The notes: a model not told the origin generated them from the sequence alone. A DNA stretch of 32,000 nucleotides from Candidatus Methanophagaceae archaeon (GCA_003194425.1 PQXB01000001.1:1082728-1114727), one strand, 5' to 3'; positions 4,983-26,849 are shown, counted from the stretch's first letter. Numbers and translations: made by a program.

Positions 4983-5055
4983 ATTTTCTTACCTTTATTT
5001 CTTTTTAAAAATCTTCTTATTAAAACTATTTTATATTTCACAAATACCCTAAACC

Positions 5056-10564: not shown

Positions 10565-12445
10565 TTATCCCCCTCGCTTGAAATGTTCAGTTACCGCCGC
10601 CTTGAGCAGCCGAAGAACACTTAAGCTTAAGCTCCTCCTCGCCGCGGGCCACTCCAGCCCCTCCTTCTCGTTGATGACCGAGTTCAGCAGCAGGTCGAGT
10701 TTGGGCTTCAGTCGCATCATTTTTTGGTGCTGTGTTTGTGCAGTGCCGTCAGTGCCGTCAGTGCCGTCAGTGCCGTCGTTTAGTTTTTTTATTTCGTCGA
10801 TTTCAGAGGTGAGCTCGACTGCGAGCCGTATTTTCTCCGCAGTCACCTCGGACGAAGCCCGGTCAACCAGCCCGCACTCCGCCTTCAACTCGTTCAGCCT
10901 TAACCCTGCCTTGTAAGTACAGTCCACGATTTCGCCCCGCGTCAGCCACTCGGTCTCGTAGTTCAGGGCGTACTTCCAACTCGGCGAGAGCATCGCCGCT
11001 CGGTACTGCTCGAGCGACTTAAAGAGGATTTTGTAGCCGAACTTCTCGGGGTTCTCGTAGGCGACGCAGCCGGGGTCAAGGAACGGCGAGTAAGCGAGAA
11101 TAAACGGAACCACCCGCTTCCCACTCCCGTACTTCTTCATTAAACGACCGCACCACTCAATGGTCTGCATAACAGATTCGCAGGTCTGAAAAGGCAAGCC
11201 AATCATAAAAAAAAGGTCGAACTTCTTGCAGCCCGCCTGCAGCGCCCATTTTAGGTTCTCCTCAATCTCGCGGTTCTTGTACCGCTTCCCGACCGCTGCT
11301 CGTATTTTCTCGTCGTGGCTGTCAGGGGAGATTTCAAAGTTGAAGTTCTTGACCGACCCTGCCACGAGTTCAAAATACTCTCTCGGGTTCGGAACAGTGT
11401 CAAAGAGTTCAAAGACGAGTTGGTTCTCGAAATTCGCTCTCTTCTTTTTCAACCGCGCCAAGACGGTACGGGCGTATTTTTCGCCGGCTTGGCGGAGGTC
11501 GCCGATTACGAAAATTGGGGCTCTCGTGTAGTTCGTGGTTCGGAGAATGTCCGCAGCGACTAACTCGGGGTCGCGAAACGCCGGCTTCCTGCGGTTGCAG
11601 TAGCCCGCGAGTGCGTTCCGAGACCCGCCGCAGAAGACGCAGTTGTGAACACAGCCGCGGCAGGTTAGCACGGGCGTGATCGGGTAGTCCAGCCACTCGT
11701 GCGACGACCAGCCGTGAAACGGGATTAAACTTTTGAGGTCTCGGTATTTCAGCGCCGACTTGAAGACTGGGAAGTAGTTGTTCACGGACTTGTTCAGGCG
11801 GGCAGGGACGTGCGTGAGTGGATTTACACGCACCTTAACCTCGCCACTGCTCACCTTAACCTCGCCACTGCTCACCTTAACCTCGCCACTGCTTTCGTCT
11901 TCCTCCTCCTTCCAAACGAGGTTCGGGATTTTAGCGAACTCGAAATCGTGCGGACGCCGACGCCGAACCTGTAAAAGCGTCTTCATAAGTTGCAGCAGTG
12001 GCTCTTCGGTAGAGTCGCCCCGCAGAATAAAATCCACCTCCGGACAGCGAATCAACTCCTCGTAGAAGTAGGACGCGGAGAAACCCCCGAAAATCACGGG
12101 CGTGCTCCCGTGGTACCTCTTGCAAATTTTCGCTACCTCGAGGCTACCCTGTGCGTGCGGCAGCCAGTGAAAGTCAATCCCAAACGCCCCTCTCGGCTTG
12201 AGTCGCCGCACCATTTTCTCAGCGTCAAACTCCTCGCTGCCGAGCATTCTCGCCGCTAAATTCACTATTCGCACCCTCACTCCGTTCCGCTCCAAATGCT
12301 CGAGCAAAGAGAAAAATCCGAGTGGGTACATCTCGAAGACGGGCGTTGAGGGGACGCCGTCTGCAATCGGGCCGTACAAAATCGCTCGCTTCCTGAAGTC
12401 GTAGACCGCGGGTGCGTGCAGCAGAATTAAATCCGGGTTGCTCAT
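10565..12445 (-). CDS. B12-binding-domain / radical SAM enzyme, substrate unknown
   Basis: N-terminal cobalamin-binding-like domain (LILLHAP...VRIVNL). Radical SAM cluster motif C-VHN-C-VF-C (CRGCVHNCVFCGG). Two perfect in-frame tandem inserts: SSGEVKV x3 and GTD x4. Confidence 0.75.
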   Translation of the reverse strand: MSNPDLILLHAPAVYDFRKRAILYGPIADGVPSTPVFEMYPLGFFSLLEHLERNGVRVRIVNLAARMLGSEEFDAEKMVRRLKPRGAFGIDFHWLPHAQGSLEVAKICKRYHGSTPVIFGGFSASYFYEELIRCPEVDFILRGDSTEEPLLQLMKTLLQVRRRRPHDFEFAKIPNLVWKEEEDESSGEVKVSSGEVKVSSGEVKVRVNPLTHVPARLNKSVNNYFPVFKSALKYRDLKSLIPFHGWSSHEWLDYPITPVLTCRGCVHNCVFCGGSRNALAGYCNRRKPAFRDPELVAADILRTTNYTRAPIFVIGDLRQAGEKYARTVLARLKKKRANFENQLVFELFDTVPNPREYFELVAGSVKNFNFEISPDSHDEKIRAAVGKRYKNREIEENLKWALQAGCKKFDLFFMIGLPFQTCESVMQTIEWCGRLMKKYGSGKRVVPFILAYSPFLDPGCVAYENPEKFGYKILFKSLEQYRAAMLSPSWKYALNYETEWLTRGEIVDCTYKAGLRLNELKAECGLVDRASSEVTAEKIRLAVELTSEIDEIKKLNDGTDGTDGTDGTAQTQHQKMMRLKPKLDLLLNSVINEKEGLEWPAARRSLSLSVLRLLKAAVTEHFKRGG

Positions 12446-13047: not shown

Positions 13048-14646
13048 ATGAAGACAAGTAACAAGGTCGCGGTGCTCGACTTCGGGGGGCAGTACAGCCA
13101 CCTCATCGTTCGGCGGTGCAGAGAATTGGGCGTTTACACCGAACTTCACCCGTACGGAGTTTCAACAACAGAGCTTGGTCTTGGCGAGGTCAAAGGAATA
13201 ATCCTTTCAGGCGGTCCGTTCAGCGTGCACGAACCGGGTAGTCCAAAATGCAGTCCTGAGATTTTTGAATTAGGCGTCCCAGTTCTCGGAATTTGTTACG
13301 GGGCGCAGCTGATTGCGTTTCTGAAAGGCGGCGTGGTAGAAGAAGGGCGGAAGGGCGAGTTTGGAAGGGCAGAACTGCTCTTTAAAGATTCCGAGCTGTT
13401 TGCTGGGGTGAGGGGGGTGAGGGGGAGAGAGGGCGGGAAAATAAATGTCTGGATGTCACACGGAGATGTGATAAAGGAGTTTGCGGTTGCGGAAATAATC
13501 GGCTACACGAAGAACTCGCCGGTTGCTGCGTTTCGTGTTTCTGTCTCTGTTTCTAATTCTAATTCCAACTCAAGAATTTACGGCGTTCAGTTCCACCCCG
13601 AGGTTCGCCACACCGAGAAGGGCGACAAGATTTTGTGGAATTTCTTGTATAAAATCTGCGGCTGCGAGCGGAATTGGACGCTGGAATCGTTCGCTACGGA
13701 GGCAGTAGAAGAAATAAGGCGTACGGTGGGCAGCGAAGGCAGGGTGGTCTGCGGGCTCAGCGGCGGAATTGACTCTTCTACAACCGCGGTGCTGGTCAGC
13801 AAAGCCGTGGGCGAGCGGCTCACTTGCATTTTCGTTGACAACGGGCTGCTGCGGAAAGGCGAGAAGGAAACGGTTCTAAACACTTTCGAGAAGAATTTTA
13901 AAATGCGACTCGTGTTCGTGGACGCGAGGGAGCGGTTTCTGGAGGGCTTGCGGGGAGTCGCGGACGCCGAGGCGAAGCGAAAAATAATTGGAGAACTGTT
14001 CGTGAAAATCTTTGAGGAAGAGGCGAAGCGGCTGAGAGGGGGGGGAAATGTAGATTTCCTGGCTCAAGGCACGATTTACCCGGACAGAATTGAGAGTGCT
14101 GCGGGGAGAAGAGGCGGTGTTGCGTCGCTCATAAAATCGCACCACAACGTGGGCGGGCTGCCCGAGAAACTGGGGCTGCGGCTGTTAGAGCCGATCAAGG
14201 ACTTGTACAAGGACGAGGTGCGGGAAGTGGCGAGGGAACTCGGAATGCCGCCGGAGATTCTGAACCAGCACCCGTTCCCAGGTCCTGGTCTCGCGGCTCG
14301 CGTGATTGGAGAGGTTACGGAGGAGAAACTGCGAATTTGTCGTGAAGCGTCGAATGTGGTGGAGGAGGAATTAAAAAGGAGCGGGTGGTACGAGAAGGTC
14401 TGGCAGGCGTTTGCTGTCGTAGGCGACGACCTCGCCACGGGTGTGCTTGGCGACGCGAGAAGCCTGGGCAGAATCGTTACAATTCGCGTGGTTGAGTCAG
14501 AGGAGGCGATGACAGCGGATTTCGTGAAACTGCCCTACGAGGTGCTCGAGAGGATGAGCAGGCGAATAACGAACGAGGTTAAGGGCGTTACTTGGGTGAC
14601 TTACGCGGTCTCGTCCAAGCCGCCTGCGACGATCGAGCCGTGTTGA
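13048..14646 (+). CDS. guaA: GMP synthase (glutamine-hydrolysing), fused GATase + ATP-pyrophosphatase
   Basis: GATase GICYGAQL and HPE triad region. PP-loop GLSGGIDSS. C-terminal KPPATIE. Two low-complexity inserts (GVRGVRG; VSVSVSNSNSNS). Confidence 0.95.
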   Translation: MKTSNKVAVLDFGGQYSHLIVRRCRELGVYTELHPYGVSTTELGLGEVKGIILSGGPFSVHEPGSPKCSPEIFELGVPVLGICYGAQLIAFLKGGVVEEGRKGEFGRAELLFKDSELFAGVRGVRGREGGKINVWMSHGDVIKEFAVAEIIGYTKNSPVAAFRVSVSVSNSNSNSRIYGVQFHPEVRHTEKGDKILWNFLYKICGCERNWTLESFATEAVEEIRRTVGSEGRVVCGLSGGIDSSTTAVLVSKAVGERLTCIFVDNGLLRKGEKETVLNTFEKNFKMRLVFVDARERFLEGLRGVADAEAKRKIIGELFVKIFEEEAKRLRGGGNVDFLAQGTIYPDRIESAAGRRGGVASLIKSHHNVGGLPEKLGLRLLEPIKDLYKDEVREVARELGMPPEILNQHPFPGPGLAARVIGEVTEEKLRICREASNVVEEELKRSGWYEKVWQAFAVVGDDLATGVLGDARSLGRIVTIRVVESEEAMTADFVKLPYEVLERMSRRITNEVKGVTWVTYAVSSKPPATIEPC

Positions 14647-14683
14647 AAGCCGTGTTGAAAGCCGTGTTGAAAGCCGTGTTGAA
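14638..14683. repeat. 12-nt tandem repeat (~x4) starting in the last codons of guaA and carrying its stop codon
   Basis: ccgtgttgaaag x3 plus ccgtgttgaat. In the guaA frame it reads P-C-stop-K repeatedly. Confidence 0.9.
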
Positions 14684-14690
14684 TAAAGGG

Positions 14691-15932
14691 TTAGTTGTGC
14701 CTCTTGTGCCGCGTCCCCACTCTCTCGGGGTTCCTCGCAAAGACCTCAAAGCCCGGAATAACGACCCTCACGACAGGAACGCCGATTTCCTGCCTCGTTA
14801 AATCTACTACTACCACTCGCCTCGCCACTCGTCTCAACCTTTCAAGCGCAACCTCAATGTCGCCGTCTATTCTGTCTGTCGCCAAGTTTGGAAGTTCGCT
14901 CAACCTCACACACTCTCCCTCTCTCCCTCCCCCGTCTTCAAACCAGTGCCGATTCCTTCGCTTCATTTCCTCGTAACTCATTCTTCCCTCTCCCTCTCTT
15001 CTCGTCGCTCTTCCTCTTCTCGACGCAGCAGCACTCGCGATTTGCAAAACACGGGACTGTGCAGCCTCGGTTACCGCTCTAATCGTCGCTATTCTGGGGT
15101 CGCTGTGCGTTCCCGCGCCGTAAACGAGCAAGGACGCGTCCTTCGTTTCAGCGTCGTCCAACGCCAACGCAACCGTCGTAAACCCCGTGTCCGAGGGAAT
15201 GTACCAGAAATGAGGAACAATTCCCGCAGCCTCAAACCTCTCTCGCAGCTCAAACAGCCTGCCGTCGCTCTCGCTGATTTCTATTTGTTTTCCCGCATTC
15301 TGCTTCAACTCCACGCAGCTCAGTGCGTCCCGCTCAATCACTTCGGTAATGCCGTGAAAAATTGCTTCTTCGAGGTTGTTCCCCGAGGCGATTCCGTTGC
15401 TGTCGCTCCTGAACAGCCTCGCTCCTCGGTTCGAGACGAAGGGGTGAAAGACCGCGTTCGCAGGAACAAGCACCTCCTCGTCCCTCAAAATGTCGTAGCC
15501 CTCGCACCACTCCAATTTCGAACTCGGACCGACGGTGGAGAGTGTGCTCAAAATAAGCGACGCAGGCTCCACTTTCTCTTTCGCCCCGTAGGAGTCGTAG
15601 GGTTCAAACAGGAATTTCGCCCTGTCCCCCTGTTTTATCTCCGCAGAATACCGCTCGATCGCTTCCATAAGGACCGAGACTCTCGCCTGCTCTCTCGTAA
15701 GTCCTTTCCCTGCGTGAACAGACCTCGCACCTTCTTCAGCCCCCGGTCGGCTCGCGGAAAAGACAGGAAGCCCGAGTTTGTCAAGCCCTGTAAGGTCGTC
15801 TATTTTCTTTATTCCTACCTTCTCCTCAAGCCGTTCTACCTCGCCCCAAGTCTCGGTTGGGGTAAAAGCCCTGTGCGTGTCGAGGAAATATCTTTTGGGC
15901 GTTCGCTTGAGTTCTATTTTCATTTTACACAC
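14691..15932 (-). CDS. ycaO: YcaO-domain protein (archaeal, ~410 aa; ATP-dependent amide-backbone activating enzyme)
   Basis: Typical archaeal YcaO N-terminus (R.. TP.ET...V..L....GI.....T.LD.LG.PV) and GKGLTREQARVSVLMEAIERYSA motif. No TfuA-like ORF in the window. Confidence 0.85.
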   Translation of the reverse strand: MCKMKIELKRTPKRYFLDTHRAFTPTETWGEVERLEEKVGIKKIDDLTGLDKLGLPVFSASRPGAEEGARSVHAGKGLTREQARVSVLMEAIERYSAEIKQGDRAKFLFEPYDSYGAKEKVEPASLILSTLSTVGPSSKLEWCEGYDILRDEEVLVPANAVFHPFVSNRGARLFRSDSNGIASGNNLEEAIFHGITEVIERDALSCVELKQNAGKQIEISESDGRLFELRERFEAAGIVPHFWYIPSDTGFTTVALALDDAETKDASLLVYGAGTHSDPRIATIRAVTEAAQSRVLQIASAAASRRGRATRREGEGRMSYEEMKRRNRHWFEDGGGREGECVRLSELPNLATDRIDGDIEVALERLRRVARRVVVVDLTRQEIGVPVVRVVIPGFEVFARNPERVGTRHKRHN

Positions 15933-15954
15933 CCTCCTCTTTTATGCAAGCCTC

Positions 15955-17040
15955 CTATTTTATGCAAGCACCAACATAAATCCAAGCGTCGAGGTAACCG
16001 TCGCTCTCCTTGTTCTCTTTTATCTCGCCCTCAAACTCGCCGTTCAAAATCTCTTTCACCACCCCTGCCTCTTCTTCGCTTGAGACCGTAAAAAAGACTC
16101 GCCCACTGCCACTGCCACCGCCACTGCCACCGCCACTGCCACCGCCACCGCTCTTCAGCACCTTCGGAACTTCCCGCAGCACCTGTTCCCACTCAAGCCT
16201 GTTGAACGGCGTGAGTTTCCCGATCATAAATCCAAAGACAACCTCAAACTCCCTGCCAAAAAAGCCCGACAGCGTGGAGCAGTCCAAGACAACGCTCCTC
16301 TTCGGCTCCAAGACGCCCTCTTCCAAACCCTTGCAAACCTCGCACTCGTTTACGTCCGCGGTAACAGGAAAAATGTCCAACTCGTGCAGTGCAACCGTCC
16401 CGCCGCCCTCGCCGCACCCAATCTCAAGCGTCTTCGCATTTTTTAGGTCTGCACCGCTACCCTCCCCTAAAAATTCGGTTAGCGCCTTCTTTAACGCCTC
16501 TGTCCTCTCTCGTGGGTAGAATCCCGCGTCCACTGACTCTGACTCAAAACCCGAACCGCAGTCGCAGAACAGCCGGTTCACTAAACCAACCGAGTAAAAC
16601 TCAAGAACACCCTCACGAAATCTCTCCCACTCTACCTCTACTTCCCTTTCCTTCTCCTTTCCTTTCTCCTTTCCCTTCTCCTTTCCCTTCTCCTTTCCTT
16701 TCTCCTTTCCCTTCTCCTTTCCCTTCTCCCTTCCCTTCTCCCCTTCGCCCTCCGCACTTACCAAGCCCGCAAGCGCCTCAAAATCTCTCTTCCTCTCGCG
16801 GTCTGCGGTAAAATCTGTAAAGACGATCCAGAAGCCCAGGCTCTTGTCGTAAGTTGCAATTCCAATCAACTCCTTCTCAACCGAGTCCTTGCCGCCTGCA
16901 AAAATCCTAACCACCTCTGCTACGTCCTCTGCTTTGACTTTACGCAAATATTCAAGTGTTCTGCCGATTCCTTTTTGGTTTGCGTAACTCGGCTCTACCA
17001 GCATAAAATCGCCGATTCCCAACAGCTCGCTCAGTTCCAT
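15955..17040 (-). CDS. Class I SAM-dependent methyltransferase-like protein with unknown N-terminal domain
   Basis: Motif I-like TLEIGCGEGGGT followed by an acidic-loop segment. Two large low-complexity inserts ((GKEK)n, (GGGS)n). The N-terminal ~95 aa match nothing I recognise. Confidence 0.55.
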   Translation of the reverse strand: MELSELLGIGDFMLVEPSYANQKGIGRTLEYLRKVKAEDVAEVVRIFAGGKDSVEKELIGIATYDKSLGFWIVFTDFTADRERKRDFEALAGLVSAEGEGEKGREKGKEKGKEKGKEKGKEKGKEKGKEKEREVEVEWERFREGVLEFYSVGLVNRLFCDCGSGFESESVDAGFYPRERTEALKKALTEFLGEGSGADLKNAKTLEIGCGEGGGTVALHELDIFPVTADVNECEVCKGLEEGVLEPKRSVVLDCSTLSGFFGREFEVVFGFMIGKLTPFNRLEWEQVLREVPKVLKSGGGGSGGGSGGGSGSGRVFFTVSSEEEAGVVKEILNGEFEGEIKENKESDGYLDAWIYVGACIK

Positions 17041-17069
17041 TTCCTCTCTTCAACTCTTCTTCATTCTTC

Positions 17070-18197
17070 TCAATCACGACCGAAAGACGAAACTAACCTT
17101 CTCTGTCCAAAACGACACACCGGGTCTTCTGCCAAATAATCGCCCGAAACGGCGTAGGCTCTTGACCTGCAGCCGCCGCAGATTTGCTTGTATTTGCAGG
17201 CGGCACACTGCCCCTTCTCCACCCGCGCCCGCAGAGCCTTGAACATTTCCGAGTTGCGGACAATCTCCAAGAAACTCGCCTCTCGAATGTTCCCCGCTTT
17301 TGCGGGCAAGTAGGCACACGGCGTTACATCGCCGTTTGGAAATATGTGAAACCGCGTAATTCCTGCGGTGCAGCCCGTGAACCTCCGTCCCTGCTCACGA
17401 CTCACAAGCCCCTTGTCCCACAGAAACGCCCAGTACTGCGGGTTGCAAATTGGCTTTAGCCAGACCTTCGTCCCTTTCTGCCACTCTGTCACATCTTCAA
17501 AGAACCGCGTGTTCTCGTCGGTGCTCAAGCAAGCCTCCGAAATCTGCTTTCCGCGACCAACGGCGATTAAATAAATGAGGTAAATTCGCCAAACCCCCAA
17601 ATCGTCTGCAAGCCTGATTATTTTCGGAATCTCGCTGTAGTTGTCCCTCGTCACCATCGTGAAGAGTTGCACTCCAAGCCCCGCCGCCTTGCACGCGTTC
17701 ACCCCCCGCAGCACGCCTTCAAAAGCACCCTCAACACCGCGAAAATCGTCGTGTGCCTTCCCAATTCCGTCAATGCTTACCGCAGCACGCTCCAGTCCCG
17801 CCTTCTTCAACCGCTCTGCGACCGCCCTTGTTATCAGCGTCCCGTTCGTCGCCATCACGACCTGCATTTCAAAGGACGGCGAGGCTGCGTACTCGATGAG
17901 TTCGTAAATGTCGTCCCGCAGCAGCGGTTCGCCGCCTGTAAATGCGAACTTAACAGGTCCGAGTTTCGCGGCTTCCTCAATGAGTCCGAAGCCCTCCTCG
18001 GTCGTGAGTTCCGCAGGATCCTCTTCGCTGATTGAGCAGTGTTTGCACCGCAGGTTGCACCGCTTCGTTACCGCCCACACGACCTCGCCAGGCAGGTAGC
18101 TGAAGCAGCCTGTCCCCACCGCGTCGTTCGCAAAAATCCCTCCCTCTCCGTCCATTTTCTTTCTCCCGTCTGTCCCGTTTGTCCCGCTTTTAGCCAA
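17070..18197 (-). CDS. Radical SAM / SPASM-domain protein (AhbC/AhbD/NirJ/PqqE-like maturase fold)
   Basis: C-NLR-C-KH-C radical SAM motif with GGEPLL. C-terminal Cys-rich SPASM (GQCAACKYKQICGGCRSRAY...DPVC). The track start is TTG. The ATG at 18155 (MDGEGG...) is a plausible alternative. Confidence 0.8.
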   Translation of the reverse strand: MAKSGTNGTDGRKKMDGEGGIFANDAVGTGCFSYLPGEVVWAVTKRCNLRCKHCSISEEDPAELTTEEGFGLIEEAAKLGPVKFAFTGGEPLLRDDIYELIEYAASPSFEMQVVMATNGTLITRAVAERLKKAGLERAAVSIDGIGKAHDDFRGVEGAFEGVLRGVNACKAAGLGVQLFTMVTRDNYSEIPKIIRLADDLGVWRIYLIYLIAVGRGKQISEACLSTDENTRFFEDVTEWQKGTKVWLKPICNPQYWAFLWDKGLVSREQGRRFTGCTAGITRFHIFPNGDVTPCAYLPAKAGNIREASFLEIVRNSEMFKALRARVEKGQCAACKYKQICGGCRSRAYAVSGDYLAEDPVCRFGQRRLVSSFGRD

Positions 18198-18231
18198 CAG
18201 GTCTTATAAAGAGGTTTTATTAAATAATTTT

Positions 18232-19059
18232 ATGAAATTGGCGCCAGCGGAGGTAGTCGTGGTAATCCCAACCTACAACGAAAAGAGGAACATAAAAATC
18301 CTCGTCCCACAGGTGCTAAAAGTCCTCGAGCAGAGAGCCCTCGGGCAGAGAGCCCTCGGACAGAGAGCCCTCAAGCAGAGTGAGCAGAGCGGACTCTCGG
18401 GTGGCGGTAAAATCGTCGTAGTAGACGACAACAGCCCCGACGGAACCGCGGAAGCAGTCAAGGAGTGGACGAGGAGGTGCGAAAATGTGTTCTTGCTGAG
18501 CAGGAAAGAAAAAGGTGGTTTGGGGTCGGCGTACGTCGTGGGGTTCAAGTTCGCGATTGAGCGGCTGCGTGCGGGTGTTGTCTTTGAGATGGACGGGGAC
18601 TGCTCGCACGACCCAAAGGACATTCCTAGGTTCTTGGACGAGTTCAAGAGTGGCAGGAACGGCTACGACGTGGTTGTTGGCTCGCGGTACATTCGGGGCG
18701 GTGCAATTCCGAAATGGGGTCTTTACAGGAGACTGGTCAGCAGAGGCGGGAACTTCTTCGCAAGAACAGTCGCCGGCATTCCTGTGCACGACTGCACGAG
18801 CGGCTACAGAGCGATCCGGACTGCGAAGCTGAAGGAGGTCGAACTCGATGCGTTGAATGTGCAGGGCTACGCATTTCAGATTTGCCTTCTGCACGCTTTA
18901 ATCGAAAAGGGGGCGAAGGTAAAAGAGATTCCAATCGTGTTTAGCGAGCGGAGGAGCGGAGAGAGCAAACTCGGCAACGGCGACATAAAAGAGTTCTTCT
19001 TCAACTCTTTCAGGTTAAGACTGAAAAAGCATTCAAGAAAAATCAAAACAAAAAAATAA
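18232..19059 (+). CDS. GT2 family glycosyltransferase, dolichyl/polyprenyl-phosphate mannose (or glucose) synthase-like
   Basis: VVIPTYNE...VVDDNSPDGT...DGD.SHDP...GSRY...SG(Y/F)R is the Dpm1-type pattern. QRALG x3 insert. Confidence 0.8.
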   Translation: MKLAPAEVVVVIPTYNEKRNIKILVPQVLKVLEQRALGQRALGQRALKQSEQSGLSGGGKIVVVDDNSPDGTAEAVKEWTRRCENVFLLSRKEKGGLGSAYVVGFKFAIERLRAGVVFEMDGDCSHDPKDIPRFLDEFKSGRNGYDVVVGSRYIRGGAIPKWGLYRRLVSRGGNFFARTVAGIPVHDCTSGYRAIRTAKLKEVELDALNVQGYAFQICLLHALIEKGAKVKEIPIVFSERRSGESKLGNGDIKEFFFNSFRLRLKKHSRKIKTKK

Positions 19060-19148: not shown

Positions 19149-20291
19149 CTACGGCAGCTCCAGTTCCAGCAGCCCACTGCTGCTGCCTCGCAACTTCTCC
19201 TCTCCCGTTTTTATCCAAGGGTTGTCGTCGATTTCAAAGCACGCCCGGTCACTCGCAATTTCTTCGCCCGTTGTCGGATCCCTCAGCGTTCCGATAAAGC
19301 AGTACTCCCCACTCGGAATCCAAAAAGTGTACGGAATCGGGAACGGCACCGTCGCATTCCACTTGAACTCCGCTGGCATTGTAAACGCCCCCGACTGGTA
19401 AAGCAAGTCCTCGTCGTCACACGGCTTCTTTAGCCCTAACTCCAACTGCATTACCCGTGGATATTCTTCCGAACGGTTTATCGCCAACGTCATTAACACC
19501 GTCTCCCCGATTGTGTAGTTCTCCCGGTCCGTTGAAACGCTTATCATTTCCGAAAGAACCCTGACATCGTCGAACCAGAACTCTTCATTATTCTGTCCAT
19601 ACTCTGTGCCGATTAAAATATGATTCCCGTAAATCGTTGCACCAGAGTAGGACAGCTGCCAGTCCGCTGGTTCTGCTTCTCCGACTTCCCAGACTCTTGT
19701 GTGAATGTCGCCGTTCGTTAGGTGTATTTTTACATTGTACCACACATTGTTACGCTGGACTACATCTTGGTTTTCTACTAACACTTCCTTACCAATCAAT
19801 GGATCTATATAGCGTATGTCGAGATGGTCTCCATATCCCAAACCTACAAAATAGAACTTGCTCGCGTTGGAATCCGCGTAGAACCCGATGCCCATATCAG
19901 CAACATCGCCTGTTGCGTCCCCTTTCACTTTCGCTGTTATCACGACACCGTCAGGAACGGTTGTCTTTGAGACCGCTCGCCTGTATTTCTCGGAAGACCG
20001 CGTCAAGTGTGCCACCTGATTTTCTCCCTCCGCAACCACTTCCCACTCGCCAGAGACAATATTCCAACTGCTCAAGTCCCCGCTCTCGAAATCGTCCTCG
20101 AAGACCGCACCGCCTCTAACTTCTTCTGCCACTGCTGTCCCTGCAAGCAGCACTGCAACCACTGCTACTACGAGCAGGGTCGCAACCGCGACTAAACCAT
20201 TAGATTTTAGTTTCTTTTTTGTGTTCATTTTTTTGTTTTCACCTCTTAATTTTTCTTTTACTTTAACCTTTACCTTTCCTTCTTCACTCAT
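19149..20291 (-). CDS. Secreted/membrane-anchored protein with concanavalin-like (LamG/DUF1080-like) domain, function unknown
   Basis: N-terminal TM/signal (LVAVATLLVVAVVAVLLAGTAVA). FEDDFESGDLSSWNIVSGEWEVV is typical of LamG/DUF1080 openings. The real start may be the internal MNTKKK. Confidence 0.45.
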   Translation of the reverse strand: MSEEGKVKVKVKEKLRGENKKMNTKKKLKSNGLVAVATLLVVAVVAVLLAGTAVAEEVRGGAVFEDDFESGDLSSWNIVSGEWEVVAEGENQVAHLTRSSEKYRRAVSKTTVPDGVVITAKVKGDATGDVADMGIGFYADSNASKFYFVGLGYGDHLDIRYIDPLIGKEVLVENQDVVQRNNVWYNVKIHLTNGDIHTRVWEVGEAEPADWQLSYSGATIYGNHILIGTEYGQNNEEFWFDDVRVLSEMISVSTDRENYTIGETVLMTLAINRSEEYPRVMQLELGLKKPCDDEDLLYQSGAFTMPAEFKWNATVPFPIPYTFWIPSGEYCFIGTLRDPTTGEEIASDRACFEIDDNPWIKTGEEKLRGSSSGLLELELP

Positions 20292-20339
20292 TTTTCCTCC
20301 GCCTTTTTCCCTCCTCTTCTCTTTTCTGCCTGCTCTTTT

Positions 20340-20420
20340 TTCTTCTTCTGCCCTCGCCCTTTTTTGACTTGTTCTTACCGAGGGCGTTTACTTCTTTCTA
20401 CCTTTCTCTATAAAAAAGTT
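20340..20420. repeat. Repeat A, left copy (81 nt, ~77/81 identical to 21331-21411); contains a 7-bp-stem hairpin and a TATA-like tataaaaa
   Basis: Hand alignment at offset 991. Inverted repeat gccctcg (20350-20356) / cgagggc (20379-20385). Confidence 0.85.
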
Positions 20421-20445
20421 AAACCTTACTCATTCCCGAATTTAA

Positions 20446-20494
20446 ATTTTGAGCGAGTTGAGTGGATAGATTTATATAAAGCATAAACAAAATT
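20446..20494. repeat. Repeat B, left copy (49 nt, 46/49 identical to 21284-21332): remnant of a vapC 3' end
   Basis: Would encode NFERVEWIDLYKA-stop, against the intact vapC C-terminus DFERVDWINLYKP-stop. Confidence 0.8.
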
Positions 20495-20504
20495 TTGAAG
20501 GAGT

Positions 20505-20537
20505 AGAACGCTATCCAGAAGCTTCAACATTCGTTCT
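20505..20537. promoter_or_regulatory. Nested palindrome upstream of vapB (possible antitoxin operator)
   Basis: agaacg-N7-gaagcttc-N6-cgttct, about 55 nt upstream of the vapB ATG. A ggagg Shine-Dalgarno-like element follows. Confidence 0.35.
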
Positions 20538-20591
20538 TTTAGCACTTGGTGTTAGCAGGATTAAATAGGAATAGGAGGAAGTGGAAGTAAA

Positions 20592-20822
20592 ATGGAAAAA
20601 GTAGTAGAGAAGATAAAATTAGGTAATGAGATAAAACTATCAAAAGAAGCTTTGGAAGCACTTGGAGTAAAAATCGGTGAGGAGATAATTTTAATGATTA
20701 AAGGCAGAGAAGTAGTGATAAAACCGGCTAAAAGTATCATTGACGAAGTTGCAGGTGCTGCTGAGTTAGAGGACACCGAGTTAATAGACAAAATAATAGA
20801 AGATACCGAATTTAAGAGGTAA
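20592..20822 (+). CDS. vapB: AbrB/SpoVT-fold antitoxin (VapB-like)
   Basis: 76 aa. KLGNEIKLSKEALEALGVKIGEEIILMIKGREVVIKP is a SpoVT/AbrB swapped-hairpin pattern. Lies 10 nt upstream of a PIN gene. Confidence 0.75.
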   Translation: MEKVVEKIKLGNEIKLSKEALEALGVKIGEEIILMIKGREVVIKPAKSIIDEVAGAAELEDTELIDKIIEDTEFKR

Positions 20823-20832
20823 AAACTGAAAA

Positions 20833-21324
20833 ATGAGATTAGAAGATGTTCATCGAGGAGAGCGAATATTCATAGACACGAATATATTTACATATTTACT
20901 CGTCAAGGATAAGAGATACATTAATTCTGTAAAATCCTTCTTGAAAAAGGTGGAAGGAGGTTTTTACACGGGTTTCTTCAACTTGACGGTCTTTGACGAG
21001 ACTTCGTTTAACTTTATTAAATTAAAAGTGATTAAGAAGTATGGAATAAAAAGGGGAGAGTTTAGCGACTTTTATAAGCAAAATCCGAATTTGGTGCGAG
21101 AAATAGACTTTGAACCGGTTTTAAAGCTTTTTTCAATTGATAATCTCAATCTTTTAACGCCTAAACTAATCCTGGAGCTGGTAACAGAGTTTTCGAGCGA
21201 ACACGCTTTACTACCTGCGGATGCAATCATTTTGGCGACGATGAAAGAGCACAGCATAGTAAATCTCGCCTCGAACGACCACGATTTTGAGCGAGTTGAT
21301 TGGATAAATTTATATAAACCATAA
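20833..21324 (+). CDS. vapC: PIN-domain ribonuclease toxin (VapC-like)
   Basis: IFIDTNIF near the N-terminus, DAIILATM and NDHDF near the C-terminus supply the PIN acidic residues. Confidence 0.8.
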   Translation: MRLEDVHRGERIFIDTNIFTYLLVKDKRYINSVKSFLKKVEGGFYTGFFNLTVFDETSFNFIKLKVIKKYGIKRGEFSDFYKQNPNLVREIDFEPVLKLFSIDNLNLLTPKLILELVTEFSSEHALLPADAIILATMKEHSIVNLASNDHDFERVDWINLYKP

Positions 21325-21332
21325 ACAAAATT
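21284..21332. repeat. Repeat B, right copy (intact vapC 3' end)
   Basis: See 20446-20494. Confidence 0.8.
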
Positions 21333-21411
21333 CTTCTTCTGCCCTCGCCCTTTTTTGACTTGTTCTTACCGAGGGCATTTACTTCTTACTACCTCTCTCT
21401 ATAAAAAGGTT
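21331..21411. repeat. Repeat A, right copy, abutting repeat B
   Basis: See 20340-20420. Same hairpin (gccctcg/cgagggc) and tataaaaa element. Confidence 0.85.
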
Positions 21412-21418
21412 CAATTTT

Positions 21419-21628
21419 TTATTTATTCGCCAACGGCTTTTGACTCAATATCGGCGTCAAGAACCCAATTACCGTCCTCGAAGCGTCCAATATCTCTATC
21501 TTCACCAACCGCCCCTCCCTCGTGTAATGCAAAATCATCTCCTCTCCCGCCGCCTCGCCGTAATCAGGCTTCTCTTCGCTTATTCTTATGTCCAACGCAT
21601 CCGCATCAGCGTAGTATTTTATCTTCAT
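21419..21628 (-). CDS. DUF2283-family antitoxin-like protein
   Basis: MKIKYYADADALDIRISEEKPDYGE...LVKIEILDAS is the DUF2283 pattern. ATG at 21628 preferred over the GTG at 21637. Preceded by aggtgg. Confidence 0.7.
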   Translation of the reverse strand: MKIKYYADADALDIRISEEKPDYGEAAGEEMILHYTREGRLVKIEILDASRTVIGFLTPILSQKPLANK

Positions 21629-21630
21629 AG

Positions 21631-21713
21631 ATTCCACCTCTAAAATATCTTATTCACCTGGGCGACATAAAAATTCCACCTCTGAAATATCTATTCACCT
21701 GGGCGACATAAAA
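21631..21713. repeat. 42/41-nt tandem duplication at the toxin-antitoxin junction
   Basis: attccacctct(a/g)aaatatct(t)attcacctgggcgacataaaa x2. The duplication contains the original toxin stop and the antitoxin ribosome-binding region. Confidence 0.85.
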
Positions 21714-22010
21714 AGTTATCACAACAACCGTCTCCCCCTCGTACTCATAAACTACTCTCGCCAAATGCCGATTCAGTCTTTTATGCGCGATGAAACGATT
21801 CCCGTGTCCTCTTACAACTTCTTCGGAGCAGAGAAGGAAATTCACGAGCTCGTCTACCGAGAAATTATAATCCTCTGCCCCGTCCAAAGCGTGCCAAGTC
21901 AGCACCACACGAAAAACGCCTCTCTCTGCTTTGACCTCTAATCGCTTGCCTCTTGGTGCGTCGGTGGAGTTGATAATTTTTATCCTCTCGCCTCCCACTC
22001 TTTCCACCAT
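21654..22010 (-). CDS. DUF4258-family toxin-like protein
   Basis: TWHALDGAEDYNFSVDELVNFLL...RVVYEYEGETVVVITFY matches the DUF4258 layout (H-A-L-x-R/G ... VITVY). Paired with DUF2283 downstream. Confidence 0.6.
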   Translation of the reverse strand: MVERVGGERIKIINSTDAPRGKRLEVKAERGVFRVVLTWHALDGAEDYNFSVDELVNFLLCSEEVVRGHGNRFIAHKRLNRHLARVVYEYEGETVVVITFYVAQVNRYFRGGIFMSPR

Positions 22011-22301: not shown

Positions 22302-22428
22302 AGGCACAGCAGCGATCCCCAGTTCCCAAGTGCTCGCGCAACTCAGTACCGTAGGGAACGCTGGCGGGCTTATCTGCCGGGTTCGGAATGAGACCGGGAG
22401 TTGCCCCGCCGCTGTGGCCGCTGTGCCC
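22302..22428 (-). rRNA. rrf: 5S ribosomal RNA (stand-alone gene)
   Basis: Minus strand reads GGGCACAGCGGCCACAGCGGCGGGGCAACUCCCGGUCUCAUUCCGAACCCGGCAGAUAAGCCCGCCAGCGUUCCCUACGGUACUG...GGGAUCGCUGCUGUGCCUC. It has the conserved CCGAACCCGG..A.AAGCC core and complementary termini (GGCACAGC/GCUGUGCC), and is followed by oligo-T. Ends are +/- 3 nt. Confidence 0.9.
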
Positions 22429-22530: not shown

Positions 22531-23886
22531 ATGGAGGGGAGGAGGGGAAAATTGGAACGAAGAAAGATTTTCGCGTTGGGGTTGGCGATTGGAATTCTTG
22601 CGTTGTGCGTCTCGGTAACCGCGTTTTACACTGCCTCCGTGCCTGTAGCCGCGGAGGCGGACGGGGAAGCAGAGGGAGTAGAGGAAGGAGCAGAGGGAGG
22701 AGAAGGAGGAGCAGAGGGAGGAGAAGGAGAGGTTAGAGAAGGGCAAGAAGAAATCCAAACACACGCACCCCTCACACTCAAAATCTTCCACGCGGGCAGT
22801 TTAGCCGTGCCTTTAAAAGAGGCGGAGAAAGAATTTGAGGCGTTGAATCCGAACGTGGACGTGCGGCGCGAGTCGATGGGCAGCATCGCCGCGATTAGGC
22901 AGGTAACCGACGTGGGGAAGCAGGGAGACGTGGTCGTGTCCGCGGACTACACGCTTATTCCAGAAATGATGTACCCCGAGTACGCGGACTGGGTTGTGAG
23001 GTTCGCGACGAACGACCTCGTGCTCGCCTACAACCCAGAGCAGGGGAAGAGCAGGTTCGCGGACGAAATCACGGCTGACAACTGGTACGAAATTCTTCGC
23101 AGGGACGGCGTCGTCTTCGGGTTCTCAAATCCGAACCTCGACCCTTGCGGCTACCGGGCTGTGATGGTCTGTCAGCTCGCGGAACTGCACTACGGCGACG
23201 CCTGGATTTTTGACGACCTGATTCTCAACAACACCGCGATTACGGTGAGCGAGGAGAGGGAGGAGGACAAAAAAAAGGTGTTGGACGAAGAAAGGGTGTT
23301 TTTAATAAGGACGCCCGAAGACCTGCAGCCAAAGACCGAGAAGGTGTGCATTCGACCGAAGTCTGTTGAACTCGTGGCGTTGGTCGAGGCAGGCGGGCTT
23401 GACTACGCGTTTGAGTACCGCAGCGTCGCGGTTCAGCACAACTTGGCGTTCGTGGACTTGCCAGAGCCGGTAGATTTGAGCAGCGTTGAGTTCGCGGACG
23501 AGTACAAAAAAGTACGGCTAGAGACTGCGGACGGCAAGACGAAGACAGGGAAGCCGATTGTTTACGGGATTACGGTTCCGAAGGACGCATATTCTGAAAA
23601 TCCAGAGCTTGGACTGGAGTTCGTGAAGTTCCTCGTGGGCGAGGCGGGGCAGAGGATTTTTGAAGAGCAGGGTCAGCCGCCACTTGTGCCTGCTGTGGGT
23701 AGTGCTGTGGGTAGTAGTAACTTGCCGGAGGAGTTGAGGGATTTAGTCGTGCTTAAGACCGCGGAGCAGCAGTCGGCAACGCCGCCGACAACACCGACGC
23801 CGGCAACACCAGGCTTCGAGGCGGTCTTCGCAGTTGCTGGCTGGTTAGCAGTAGCAGAGGCTTACCTCTTGCTGCGGAAGAAGTAA
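22531..23886 (+). CDS. wtpA: Tungstate/molybdate ABC transporter substrate-binding protein WtpA, with PGF-CTERM anchor
   Basis: LKIFHAGSLAVPLKE...NPNVDV..ESMGSIAAIRQVTDVGKQGDVVVSADYTLIPEMMYPEYADW...FGFSNPNLDPCGYRAVMVCQLAE closely parallels archaeal WtpA as I recall it. C-terminus TPGFEAVFAVAGWLAVAEAYLLLRKK. Confidence 0.85.
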   Translation: MEGRRGKLERRKIFALGLAIGILALCVSVTAFYTASVPVAAEADGEAEGVEEGAEGGEGGAEGGEGEVREGQEEIQTHAPLTLKIFHAGSLAVPLKEAEKEFEALNPNVDVRRESMGSIAAIRQVTDVGKQGDVVVSADYTLIPEMMYPEYADWVVRFATNDLVLAYNPEQGKSRFADEITADNWYEILRRDGVVFGFSNPNLDPCGYRAVMVCQLAELHYGDAWIFDDLILNNTAITVSEEREEDKKKVLDEERVFLIRTPEDLQPKTEKVCIRPKSVELVALVEAGGLDYAFEYRSVAVQHNLAFVDLPEPVDLSSVEFADEYKKVRLETADGKTKTGKPIVYGITVPKDAYSENPELGLEFVKFLVGEAGQRIFEEQGQPPLVPAVGSAVGSSNLPEELRDLVVLKTAEQQSATPPTTPTPATPGFEAVFAVAGWLAVAEAYLLLRKK

Positions 23887-25877: not shown

Positions 25878-26849
25878 ATGAATCTCATCTCGATTTTTGA
25901 CCTCTCGGGTGCGGAAATAGAAGCGCTAGTAGAGAAAGCGGAAGAACTGAAGGCTGAGCGGAAGAAGGGCGTAGAGGGCGTAGAGGGCGTAGAGGGCGTA
26001 GAGGGTGTAAGCGGAAGAGCGAGAAAGGACTTGGAAGGCAGGACGTTGGCACTGATTTTCGAGAAGCCGTCTACTCGCACCCGCGTCTCGTTTGAGGTTG
26101 CGGGGCTGGAGTTGGGCGGGAATGTGTTGAGTCTGAATTGGAACGAACTGCAGTTGGGCAGGGGCGAGCGGGTGCAGGAGACCGCGAAAGTGCTTTCGGC
26201 TTACGTGGACGCTGTTGTGCTGCGGGCATTTCGGCACAGCACGGTGCAGGAGTTCGCGAGACACGCTTCGGCTTCGGTGCCTGTAGTGAACGGGCTGACG
26301 GATTTGGAGCACCCGTGTCAGACGTTGGCGGATTTGATGACGATAAAAGAACGGAAGGGAAGGCTGGCGGGCGTTAAAGTGGCGTGGGTCGGAGATGGGA
26401 ACAATGTCTGCAATTCGCTAATCGGCGGTGCAGCACTTACGGGAATGGAGATTCGCGTGGCGTGCCCGAGAGGCTACGAGCCTGACGAGGGCGTGGTAGA
26501 GAAAGCGAAGGCGTGTGGTTGTGAAGTTCTCGTAACCGATGATGCGGAGGAGGCTGTTGCTGGCGCCGATGTTTTGTACACCGATGTGTGGGTCTCGATG
26601 GGCGACGAGGAGGCGAGCGAGCAGAGGAAAAGGGATTTACAAGACTTTCAAATAAACGCGGATTTGGTGCGGGCTGCGAAGGAGGACGCGATTGTGCTGC
26701 ACTGTATGCCTGTGCACTTGGGCGAGGAGATTACGGAGGCGGTGCTGAACAGCGACCGAGCGGTGATTTTTGAGCAGGCGGAGAACAGGCTGCACGCACA
26801 GAAGGCGCTACTGCACAAACTTTTTAGAAAAAAACAGAAATCTTTTTAA
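25878..26849 (+). CDS. argF: Ornithine carbamoyltransferase
   Basis: FEKPSTRTRVSFE, HPCQ.LAD, TDVWVSMG, HCMP. Start set to MNLISIFDLSG (25878). GVE x4 insert. Confidence 0.9.
   Translation: MNLISIFDLSGAEIEALVEKAEELKAERKKGVEGVEGVEGVEGVSGRARKDLEGRTLALIFEKPSTRTRVSFEVAGLELGGNVLSLNWNELQLGRGERVQETAKVLSAYVDAVVLRAFRHSTVQEFARHASASVPVVNGLTDLEHPCQTLADLMTIKERKGRLAGVKVAWVGDGNNVCNSLIGGAALTGMEIRVACPRGYEPDEGVVEKAKACGCEVLVTDDAEEAVAGADVLYTDVWVSMGDEEASEQRKRDLQDFQINADLVRAAKEDAIVLHCMPVHLGEEITEAVLNSDRAVIFEQAENRLHAQKALLHKLFRKKQKSF

Follow-up and report, generated by a model that had tools for sequence, protein, structure and literature searches.

Three adjacent genes encoding a radical SAM/SPASM enzyme (rSAM1), a methyltransferase (MT), and a YcaO protein are best explained as a species-specific operon that unites an MCR-maturation pair, MT-ycaO, with an rSAM1 gene from a quinone-linked context, a reading that we regard as moderately probable. 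MT and ycaO would be an inherited pair from the ANME-1 MCR-maturation cluster, and rSAM1, which in relatives accompanies rSAM2, a paralogue, and naphthoquinone genes of the futalosine or MenA-like prenyltransferase kind, would have moved beside MT in the source lineage.

Translation of the window, i.e., the whole 32-kb stretch of DNA analyzed, placed the three co-directional open reading frames (ORFs) on the minus strand at positions 14691 to 18197, separated by 29 nt and then 22 nt (31 nt if YcaO starts at its ATG). Coordinates and spacing agreed with an earlier sequence-only reading, which had also noted the lack of a small precursor ORF nearby: gaps of this size cannot accommodate a peptide ORF, and none fits into the 44-nt spacer beyond ycaO. 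The coordinates of all features are given in Table 1. The gene order, in which the flanking GT2 and GuaA genes point in the opposite direction to the trio, was found on contigs of three separate JGI metagenomes, ruling out an assembly chimera. The window derives from an archaeon of the methane-oxidizing ANME-1 group (Methanophagales), as the names carried by the closest homologs of both MT and rSAM1 show. Neither mcr genes nor quinone genes were detected within the 32-kb window.

Table 1. Features of the rSAM1-MT-ycaO locus, with positions counted from the first nucleotide of the window
Feature	Position	Strand	Remarks
Promoter-like element: AT-rich stretch and TATA-like box (cTTTATAAg)	18202..18232	-	Upstream of rSAM1; sequence reading
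rSAM1 (radical SAM/SPASM enzyme)	17070..18155	-	Likely gene, 361 aa; mechanical ORF 17070-18197, 375 aa, TTG start
Spacer rSAM1/MT	17041..17069	-	29 nt; contains GAGAGGAA ribosome-binding site
12-nt tandem repeat, 8.6 copies	16641..16741	-	TRF; inside MT gene, in frame, encodes (GKEK)n
12-nt tandem repeat, 3.8 copies	16103..16148	-	TRF; inside MT gene, in frame, encodes (GGGS)n
MT (methyltransferase)	15955..17040	-	361 aa; two-domain, SAM dependent
18-nt direct duplication (cttgcataaaa-aggagg, two copies)	15933..15969	-	Spans MT stop codon and spacer before ycaO
YcaO, "methanogenesis marker 1"	14691..15923	-	Mechanical ORF 14691-15932, GTG start
12-nt perfect tandem repeat, 4 copies	14636..14683	.	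In 44-nt convergent spacer between ycaO stop and guaA stop

Two of the gene starts were revised. Homologs span just 91 to 95% of the mechanical ORF of rSAM1, and upstream of the ATG at position 18155 lie the ribosome-binding site GGGAGA and a TTTATAAG box; homolog coverage and ribosome-binding site thus make this ATG the probable start. For ycaO, the ATG at position 15923 with its GGAGG site is more likely than the GTG at position 15932, and the protein is called with 410 aa in an independent assembly. This GGAGG site is provided by the second copy of the 18-nt duplication. The TATA-like box lies in the divergent intergenic region common to rSAM1 and the GT2 gene and appears to be the sole obvious promoter-like element serving the trio, which, judged from spacers of 29 nt and 22 to 31 nt, is probably co-transcribed.

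The YcaO domain is complete (Pfam PF02624, 1.3e-83, profile positions 1 to 325 of 325), and the protein matched TIGR03266 (methanogenesis marker 1) over profile positions 1 to 375 of 376 with 397.3 bits, above the NCBI curated cut-off of 365. Family membership predicts that it is the enzyme for thioamidation of the McrA glycine, and thioglycine has been reported in the MCR of ANME-1. A YcaO of this type explains the missing precursor peptide, the target protein being encoded elsewhere, as the sequence-only reading had proposed. At the McrA active-site glycine, the backbone amide oxygen would be activated with ATP and then exchanged for sulfide to give thioglycine; this reaction is established in homologs and is predicted here for a YcaO that has no adjacent TfuA. 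A RiPP-type YcaO, i.e., an azoline or thioamide peptide maturase, was considered and rejected, as there is neither a precursor peptide nor an E1-like or Ocin-ThiF partner nearby; the score against the SagD-type model was 164 bits, below the cut-off of 219. The absence of TfuA from the trio, also part of the earlier reading, held for the entire 32-kb window, in which tblastn with a Methanolapillus TfuA query (E <= 1e-3) gave no match. The YcaO-TfuA system of Methanosarcina acetivorans (ycaO-tfuA) has a YcaO of the same family, above the TIGR03266 cut-off, and likewise a target encoded elsewhere and no precursor peptide. It differs from the present locus, which has no tfuA adjacent or in the window and in which MT rather than sulfur metabolism genes precedes ycaO. 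YcaO without TfuA is already known from Methanopyrus and Methanocaldococcus (PMC5589413). In the genome scan for MT, one locus (L053) contained a second YcaO type, 44% identical and followed by TfuA.

MT has two domains. The N-terminal domain, of about 135 to 155 aa, matches nothing known, and the only Pfam match of the protein is a weak one to Methyltransf_25 (residues 205 to 299). The C-terminal domain is that of a class I methyltransferase with the motif I LEIGCGEGG; the pattern E-x-G-C-G-x-G-G is conserved among 140 sequences, in which E206, G210, and G212 are invariant. A profile search against the PDB retrieved PH0226 (1ve3, E 2e-8), and an AF2 model (pLDDT 86, pTM 0.85) was matched by Foldseek, in its C-terminal half only, to the class I methyltransferases UbiG, PMT, PH0226, and ChlM (E about 1e-7). 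We are confident that MT adopts the predicted class I SAM fold, Rossmann-like with a glycine-rich motif I, and the model and Foldseek matches bear out the earlier description of a methyltransferase-like protein with an N-terminal domain of no match. Both in-frame repeats encode insertions: (GKEK)n corresponds to a gap in all 13 homologs aligned and lies within residues 101 to 130, modeled with a pLDDT of about 51 to 60, and (GGGS)n is missing from the aligned homologs. The MT gene product has 365 aa in another assembly.

Several observations on the distribution and gene context of MT link it to MCR in ANME-1. (i) A search of 1.84 billion representative proteins found the family in ANME and methanogens only. 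The 61 loci in GTDB species representatives are nearly all labeled ANME-1 or Methanophagales, the others carrying a broader or likely mis-binned taxon. The close clade (47 to 74% identity) comprises ANME-1 sequences only, full-length relatives at a greater distance are restricted to ANME-2, Methanosarcina, Methanimicrococcus, and Methanolapillus, and remote relatives exist in Methanospirillum and Methanomassiliicoccus. (ii) McrC (TIGR03264, 250 bits) lies directly upstream of MT in 21 of the 46 informative ANME-1 loci, and in most cases component A2 (TIGR03269, 622 bits) comes before McrC. (iii) Of 35 ANME-1 loci, 13 have a co-directional YcaO gene downstream of MT, and this pairing persists where the upstream context changes. 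(iv) The commonest MCR-maturation cluster of ANME-1 reads U32-U32-DUF5402-A2-McrC-(188-aa gene)-MT-ycaO, and ANME-1 MT retains McrC or YcaO as a neighbor across several rearrangements. By gene order, MT is embedded among the MCR-maturation genes of ANME-1, and MT and ycaO appear to be old neighbors.

Synteny inside one order can mirror common descent rather than common function, and MT relatives from beyond ANME-1 have no MCR genes in their vicinity. The Methanosarcina ortholog lies between RFC/histone genes and pyc (pycB), and on ANME-2 and Methanoperedens-like contigs the relative follows DUF2150 beside an FtsJ-TRAM rRNA methyltransferase gene. These contexts, together with the generic nature of the Foldseek matches, would fit a housekeeping RNA or protein methyltransferase, with the mcrC/ycaO adjacency reflecting inherited order and the three genes of the trio having unrelated functions. 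We judge this unlikely, given the restriction of the family to ANME and methanogens and the retention of McrC or YcaO next to MT through the ANME-1 rearrangements.

In the preferred reading, MT would use SAM to methylate a nucleophile, and its N-terminal domain would probably hold the substrate. The methyl groups reported in ANME-1 MCR are only that of N1-methylhistidine and the S-methyl of methylthio-F430, which would make N1 of the McrA active-site histidine the likeliest substrate. That MT by itself is the N1-methylhistidine methyltransferase of McrA is nevertheless a tentative proposal, somewhat doubtful in our estimation. McmA (MA4545), as described in the literature, has the same layout, its SAM-binding domain being C-terminal and its N-terminal domain unannotated. 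McmA is the SAM-dependent McrA S-methylcysteine methyltransferase, and its gene adjoins MCR-related genes (PMC7058361). In contrast, the Methanosarcina ortholog of MT is not beside mcr genes but between a histone gene and pycB, so that the MT family is not at the McmA locus. S-Methylcysteine has been reported to be absent from the McrA of Black Sea ANME-1 MCR.

rSAM1 contains Radical_SAM (2e-27), SPASM (8.5e-11), and Fer4_12 matches. Its translation shows the motif CNLRCKHC, i.e., the radical SAM CxxxCxxC motif, and the seven-Cys SPASM pattern C-x12-G-x4-C ... CxxCx5CxxC ... C, so that the auxiliary-cluster cysteines expected of an AhbD are present. AhbD and NirJ2 resemble it in combining a radical SAM core with a SPASM domain at similar length, and rSAM1 is about 40 to 45% identical to bacterial AhbD-like proteins. 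It was nonetheless rejected as a member of either family: it scored 304 bits against AhbD (heme b synthase, TIGR04545) and 292 bits against NirJ2 (TIGR04055), both with a cut-off of 500, and its orthologs formed a clade that excluded P0199/P0213 and P0220 in a distance-based neighbor-joining tree without support values. The JGI-named heme b synthase P0199 reached 496 on AhbD and the JGI-named NirJ2 P0220 498 on NirJ2.

These results bear on the fallback of the sequence-only reading, that an AhbC/AhbD-type enzyme had been placed here by chance. It was close in spirit and failed on scores and clade. In its full form, with rSAM1 as AhbD, rSAM2 as AhbC, and an accidental position, it draws on AhbD being the top-scoring named family, on rSAM1 and rSAM2 forming a conserved adjacent pair as AhbC and AhbD do, on the lack of a better AhbD candidate among those seen, and on the need of heme for ANME-1 multiheme cytochromes (PMC9012536). 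We consider it quite improbable in view of the gap between 304 bits and the 496 of P0199 and the position outside the clades of P0199 and P0220. The gene contexts point the same way: none of the nine rSAM1-ortholog contexts examined contained ahbA/B/C or hem genes, and the UbiA proteins encoded next to rSAM1 orthologs correspond to MenA models rather than to heme O synthase.

The neighbors of rSAM1 orthologs are instead futalosine, MenA-like UbiA, polyprenyl synthase, U32, and rSAM2 genes. On two ANME-1 contigs the order is MqnE, PF02621, MqnC, PF02621, rSAM1 ortholog, and rSAM2. In Syntrophoarchaeum and on contig L005, translational coupling joins the ortholog to a MenA-like UbiA gene, and at another locus (L072) it has a U32 pair on one side and a MenA-like UbiA gene on the other, with a polyprenyl synthase gene adjacent. 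Most ANME-1 copies examined stand with futalosine genes or rSAM2, not with MCR genes, and orthologs at 46 to 60% identity occur on contigs with coupling to MenA-like prenyltransferases and in Desulfurobacterium, which is not known to have MCR. The late steps of the futalosine pathway involve the MqnP prenyltransferase, the MqnL/MqnM decarboxylase, and the MqnG methyltransferase; we know of no SPASM radical SAM enzyme in the pathway as described, and a full-text literature search for "futalosine" and "SPASM" returned nothing relevant. rSAM1 would cleave SAM reductively to a 5'-deoxyadenosyl radical, which would abstract hydrogen from the substrate with assistance from the two SPASM auxiliary clusters; the substrate would probably be a prenyl-naphthoquinone intermediate.

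The contiguous trio was seen in one species only, in three assemblies. rSAM1 was directly upstream of MT at none of the 49 other species-level loci and within about 10 kb of it at 1 of 19, in the G60 genome, indicating a lineage-specific junction rather than a conserved cassette. The dedicated cassette of the sequence-only reading hence does not stand: the three genes do not keep together in relatives, an outcome that this reading had itself named as refuting it, and the usual neighbors of rSAM1, namely, futalosine, MenA-like, and polyprenyl genes plus rSAM2, speak against a radical SAM component acting on McrA. What survives of that interpretation is the McrA-type YcaO, the SAM fold, and the place of MT among MCR-maturation genes. 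A three-enzyme cassette for McrA alone, performing thioamidation, methylation, and a radical step (e.g., didehydroaspartate formation), would be consistent with the tight spacing and single promoter-like element, the YcaO type, the MCR linkage of MT in ANME-1, and reports that some MCR modifications have no assigned enzyme. It is most improbable, since the arrangement is found in a single species, the conserved partners of rSAM1 are quinone-type genes and rSAM2, and the reported ANME-1 McrA modifications (thioglycine, N1-methylhistidine, 7-hydroxytryptophan, and methionine sulfoxide) do not obviously call for a SPASM radical enzyme.

In G60, rSAM1 heads a 12-kb co-directional cluster of rSAM1, DUF92, U32, U32, DUF5402, A2, A2, McrC, MT, and YcaO. 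The proximity of rSAM1 to MT-ycaO in two separate ANME-1 lineages, the source genome and G60, exceeds what chance would easily produce and hints at a functional link. One such link would be the 17²-methylthio group of F430: rSAM1 would take a hydrogen at C17² and form the C-S bond, MT would methylate the thiol, and YcaO would stand alongside since all three serve MCR. Thioether bond formation is common among SPASM enzymes, the nearest named families of rSAM1 (AhbD and NirJ2) act on tetrapyrroles, and the close MT clade is limited to ANME-1. G60 cultures contain methylthio-F430 (PMC10702137), the biosynthesis of which has been termed "elusive" (PMC9118554). MiaB/MtaB/RimO methylthiotransferases, radical SAM enzymes that install -SCH3, were earlier candidates for this step, but the sole MiaB-type methylthiotransferase of ANME-1, when tested, made no methylthio-F430 and acts on tRNA (PMC10702137); rSAM1 differs from them in having Radical_SAM plus SPASM instead of a UPF0004 or TRAM domain. 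Against this link stand the rSAM1 orthologs in Desulfurobacterium and on contigs with MenA-like coupling, the futalosine or rSAM2 neighbors of most ANME-1 copies examined, the lack of conservation of the trio, and the MT relatives in Methanosarcina and in ANME-2, which has been reported to be without methylthio-F430 (PMC9081873). We rate a role in methylthio-F430 synthesis as improbable; if it were true, rSAM1 and MT would be the missing enzymes for an ANME-1-specific cofactor, and the occurrence of rSAM1 beside MT-ycaO in two lineages would be explained.

The radical SAM/SPASM gene (rSAM1), the gene for a two-domain SAM-dependent methyltransferase (MT), and ycaO are separated by only 29 nt (rSAM1/MT) and 22 nt (MT/ycaO) in the ORF listing. 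The sequence-only reading had described this tight three-gene arrangement, and it was confirmed. The identical gene order recurs on contigs of three different JGI metagenomes, with a radical SAM protein that is 99% identical, which indicates that the arrangement is real. The absence of a nearby precursor ORF and of TfuA also stands, since the two spacers hold no small ORF and a TfuA query gave no match within the window. Rfam and tRNA scans likewise returned no match within the trio. Reading of the strand suggests that the rSAM1 and ycaO genes are slightly shorter than their ORFs: (i) rSAM1 has an alternative start, the ATG at 18155, preceded by a GGGAGA site and a TTTATAAG box, and homologs span only 91 to 95% of the long ORF; (ii) ycaO has an alternative start, the ATG at 15923, preceded by GGAGG, and its product is called with 410 aa in an independent assembly. 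MT and ycaO each have their own ribosome-binding site. The spacers are too short for a promoter, and the trio is thus likely to be co-transcribed; a scan for sigma-70 promoters and terminators is not meaningful in an archaeon.

Coordinates of the features discussed (window positions unless a compared locus is named)
Feature	Position	Strand	Source
Radical SAM gene (rSAM1) ORF	17070-18197	minus	ORF listing
MT gene ORF	15955-17040	minus	ORF listing
ycaO ORF	14691-15932	minus	ORF listing
12-nt repeat, four perfect copies	14636-14683		
18-nt duplication	15933-15969		
Tandem repeats (examples)	1629-1710, 3342-3415, 6671-6736, 10741-10777, 11831-11893, 16103-16148, 16641-16741, 18324-18380, 22668-22729, 25966-26009, 28214-28266		
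Cobalt/nickel uptake genes	717-8153	minus	
TIGR04190 gene	10565-12445	minus	
Low-GC stretch	20001-22000		
Antitoxin-like and PIN-type toxin-like ORFs	20592-20822, 20833-21324	plus	by eye
5S rRNA gene	22304-22425	minus	Rfam, 97 bits
rSAM1-rSAM2 pair	L067:3953-12160, L068:6129-14129, L069:10001-12163, L005:7046-10134, L070:8001-10225		
Second YcaO type	L053:11133-12255, L058:18030-19214, L059:16565-17740		
U32 pair and DUF5402 (cluster c1)	L032:3510-5532		

The coding regions of the window contain dozens of short tandem repeats whose period is a multiple of 3; these insert peptide repeats, such as (GKEK)n, (GGGS)n, SSGEVKV x3, ALGQR x3, and GTD x4, into otherwise conserved proteins. MT carries the first two in frame; neither insertion is present in any homolog, both are modelled as disorder by AlphaFold, and the copy number varies by assembly (361 versus 365 aa). 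The 44-nt spacer between the convergent ycaO and guaA genes consists largely of the perfect 12-nt repeat; the 18-nt duplication extends across the stop codon of MT and regenerates the ycaO ribosome-binding site.

The YcaO protein is a known enzyme type. Its score on TIGR03266 ("YcaO-related McrA-glycine thioamidation protein") is 397 bits, above the cut-off of 365, and its Pfam YcaO domain is complete. Proteins of this family make the McrA thioglycine, as established by genetics and in vitro (PMC5589413; PMC11796369), and family membership explains the absence of a precursor peptide; methanogens without TfuA have already been described (PMC5589413). The window's YcaO would thus catalyze the ATP-driven thioamidation of the McrA glycine, a chemistry established elsewhere for the family. 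A second YcaO type, 41 to 44% identical to that of the window, was observed at three of the loci retrieved with MT (one labelled Methanospirareceae), on the opposite strand and a few kilobases from MT. At one of them (L053) it is followed by TfuA, so ANME-1 may hold both TfuA-dependent and TfuA-less thioglycine YcaOs.

Pfam gave only a weak methyltransferase match for MT, confined to residues 205 to 299, and NCBIfam has no model for it, the sole match being a spurious one of FliH to the GKEK repeat. A profile of 14 family members matches class I methyltransferases in the PDB (1ve3 at 2e-8). AlphaFold2 with a 14-sequence alignment was unusable (pLDDT 61), and an alignment of 140 sequences was used instead, yielding a confident model (pLDDT 86, pTM 0.85), of which Foldseek matched the C-terminal half only (UbiG, phosphoethanolamine methyltransferases, PH0226, and ChlM; E of ~1e-7). 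Profile, AlphaFold, and Foldseek therefore agree on a SAM-binding fold, on which the sequence-only reading had made its proposal depend. The N-terminal domain, of about 135 to 155 aa, gave no match, and Pfam has no family for it. Foldseek and PDB sequence searches offered no clue to the substrate, as their matches were generic: class I methyltransferases in the case of MT and SPASM enzymes (PqqE, BlsE, SkfB) in that of rSAM1.

The MT family is small: when 1.84 billion representative proteins were searched by profile, 40 clusters reached an E of ≤1e-10. It comprises (i) close members (47 to 74% identity) in ANME-1, with "Ca. Methanoxibalbensis" grouped here at 35%; (ii) distant full-length members (25 to 38%) in ANME-2, Methanosarcina, Methanimicrococcus, and Methanolapillus; and (iii) remote proteins of ~277 aa in Methanospirillum and Methanomassiliicoccus. 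A four-Cys site (CxC...CxxC) is conserved in ANME-1, ANME-2, and Methanosarcina; because Methanolapillus and Methanimicrococcus have lost it, it was rejected as a family-wide catalytic feature.

To analyze the context of MT, we clustered the ORFs across 61 loci of GTDB species representatives. Metagenome contigs are the source of these neighborhoods, and mis-binning probably affects some of the record labels. The commonest same-strand run before MT consists of a U32-peptidase-like pair, DUF5402, one or two copies of MCR component A2 (TIGR03269, 622 bits), McrC (TIGR03264, 250 bits), and a 188-aa protein without a Pfam family in ANME-1. McrC lies immediately upstream of MT in 21 of the 46 informative loci, and in 13 of 35 MT is followed, within 5 kb and on its own strand, by a YcaO of the window type, although synteny inside one order is weak evidence for a common function. 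YcaO stays the neighbor of MT also where the upstream genes differ. A full-text literature search found no mention of this pairing of MT with mcrC, A2, and ycaO in ANME-1. The link to MCR genes is absent outside ANME-1: in Methanosarcina, an ortholog of 318 to 319 aa, such as MSMTP_2749, is flanked by a histone gene and pycB; in Methanolapillus, unrelated genes fill the 6 kb that separate the relative from ycaO-tfuA; and none of 80 ANME-2 and Methanosarcinales metagenome loci showed an MCR-linked context, the MT relatives there being found after DUF2150 and beside an FtsJ-TRAM gene. On ANME-2/Methanoperedens-like contigs (L080 to L136), DUF2150 almost always precedes the MT-family gene and an FtsJ-TRAM rRNA methyltransferase gene flanks it; on the ANME-2-like L080 to L100, a rhomboid/AN1 zinc-finger gene is also present.

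Nearly all biological methane is made or consumed by MCR. Expression of ANME-1 MCR in foreign hosts is limited, as there is no way to provide its modifications or its cofactor in the native form. The only methyl groups reported for this enzyme are N1-methylhistidine and the S-methyl of methylthio-F430. The gene context of MT in ANME-1 suggests that it may act on MCR. Since ANME-2 and Methanosarcina, both of which have N1-methylhistidine, also have MT relatives, and ANME-2 at least is reported without methylthio-F430, the data favor the McrA histidine as the target over methylthio-F430. Full-text searches returned no named enzyme for the universal McrA N1-methylhistidine or for the methylthio group of ANME-1 F430. 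Orthology of MT to McmA was considered and rejected. The two-domain layout described for McmA is found in MT too; however, MA4545 (McmA) adjoins the mcr genes (PMC7058361), whereas the Methanosarcina MT ortholog does not, which places the MT family away from the McmA locus.

The U32-peptidase-like pair and DUF5402 directly precede A2 and McrC at L032 and ~25 other ANME-1 loci. Some U32 proteins (UbiU/V, TrhP) are hydroxylases that work without oxygen, and the pair could either hydroxylate a quinone or be the 7-hydroxytryptophan enzyme for ANME-1 McrA. A U32 pair with 30 to 35% identity occurs at L072 together with a polyprenyl synthase, rSAM1, and UbiA.

rSAM1 contains the Pfam domains Radical_SAM and SPASM. 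The sequence-only reading had considered an AhbC/AhbD-type enzyme, and the data argue against AhbD. The best NCBIfam models are indeed AhbD (304 bits) and NirJ2 (292 bits), but both scores are below the cut-off of 500, and proteins named heme b synthase and NirJ2 by JGI reach 496 and 498 bits, respectively, on their own models. Homolog scores decrease stepwise, from 583 to 864 bits in ANME-1 to 478 to 547 in Methanoxibalbensis, Syntropharchaeia, and Syntrophoarchaeum, 398 to 449 in a few unnamed contigs, 340 to 360 in Desulfurobacterium, and at most 286 for bacterial AhbD-like proteins. In a neighbor-joining tree, which is distance based and has no support values, the orthologs form one clade apart from AhbD/NirJ2 and from rSAM2, a second AhbD-like paralogue found in relatives.

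The neighbors of rSAM1 are of the quinone type. Two ANME-1 loci (L067 and L068) have the order MqnE, PF02621, MqnC (TIGR03699, 489 bits), PF02621, and rSAM1, with rSAM2 adjacent in the former and three genes downstream in the latter; a third ANME-1 contig has rSAM1-rSAM2 without mqn genes. In Syntrophoarchaeum, an MqnC/E-like gene precedes a MenA-like UbiA gene and rSAM1, the stop and start codons of the last two overlapping. L005 has the order MenA-like UbiA, rSAM1, and rSAM2, and L072 respiratory-complex subunits, polyprenyl synthase, U32, U32, rSAM1, and MenA-like UbiA. rSAM2 also accompanies the rSAM1-like gene of Desulfurobacterium. The conserved pair is preceded by futalosine genes (MqnE, MqnC, and two PF02621 proteins) or by a MenA-like prenyltransferase. 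It may be a marker for a late, as yet undescribed step in the synthesis of menaquinone by archaea; in L005 and Desulfurobacterium, it is also accompanied by a PALP enzyme and by a TPP enzyme. A futalosine-derived quinone has already been predicted for ANME-1 (PMC9012536). Together with the neighbors, this gives the best support to a role of rSAM1 in naphthoquinone synthesis, at a step not yet assigned, where it would act on a quinone intermediate. Full-text searches found no literature tying futalosine to SPASM enzymes and no mention of the rSAM1/rSAM2 clade beside futalosine genes. Methionaquinone, the methylthio-naphthoquinone of Aquificae, was dropped as a target of the Desulfurobacterium gene because taxonomy was the sole support.

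The proposal that the trio is a dedicated protein-modification cassette fails on synteny. Among the other species-level MT loci, 49 offered 1.3 kb or more of sequence before MT, and in none of these was rSAM1 the gene immediately upstream; 19 offered 9 kb or more, and rSAM1 was within reach in 1 of them. The exception is an ANME-1 genome (G60) in which rSAM1, preceded by unrelated genes, opens a 12-kb co-directional cluster of rSAM1, a TIGR00297/DUF92 membrane protein, U32, U32, DUF5402, A2, A2, McrC, MT, YcaO, and a zinc-ribbon protein. In the neighbor-joining tree, the window's rSAM1 clusters with the copies at mqn/rSAM2 loci and that of G60 branches outside, so rSAM1 seems to have come to MT-ycaO twice. 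Two arrivals exceed our expectation by chance, and on a minority reading a functional link of rSAM1 with MT-ycaO has been retained.

The best homologs of MT and the radical SAM protein are named ANME-1, Methanophagales, or "Methanospirareceae." The rest of the window fits such an archaeon, as it encodes subunits of acetyl-CoA decarbonylase/synthase, transporters for cobalt and B12, tungstate uptake, and PGF-CTERM proteins. Upstream of the trio region, cbiM, a NikL-family ECF subunit, cbiQ, and cbiO are near the genes for a BtuC permease and a BtuF-like binding protein of 680 aa with a PGF-CTERM anchor, forming a metal and corrinoid uptake island. Arg and Gln methylation in McrA is done by B12-dependent radical SAM enzymes. 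A B12-binding radical SAM protein containing the SSGEVKV x3 insertion is encoded three genes away from ycaO; it belongs to TIGR04190 (589 bits, above the cut-off), a family named for a Thermoplasma protein, and is thus probably unrelated to MCR. The 5S rRNA gene stands alone, with no 16S rRNA, 23S rRNA, or tRNA genes within the window. The low-GC stretch (0.39 to 0.43 versus ~0.53 elsewhere) contains the toxin-antitoxin-like ORFs, and another assembly of the same species (L078) has a PIN-domain gene just past the GT2 gene, which suggests strain-to-strain variation in this region.

We rate the trio locus as an MCR-tailoring gene cluster. If none of the readings holds, it is an ordinary McrA YcaO with two neighbors of unknown function. 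The rSAM1 clade, AhbD-like and tied to futalosine and MenA-like genes, may mark an undescribed archaeal quinone-synthesis step. Taken together, the trio locus and the ANME-1 mcrC/A2 cluster make the MT family, which was found only in ANME and methanogens and has an ortholog in the genetically tractable host Methanosarcina, a concrete candidate for the enzyme behind McrA N1-methylhistidine or the methylthio group of ANME-1 F430.
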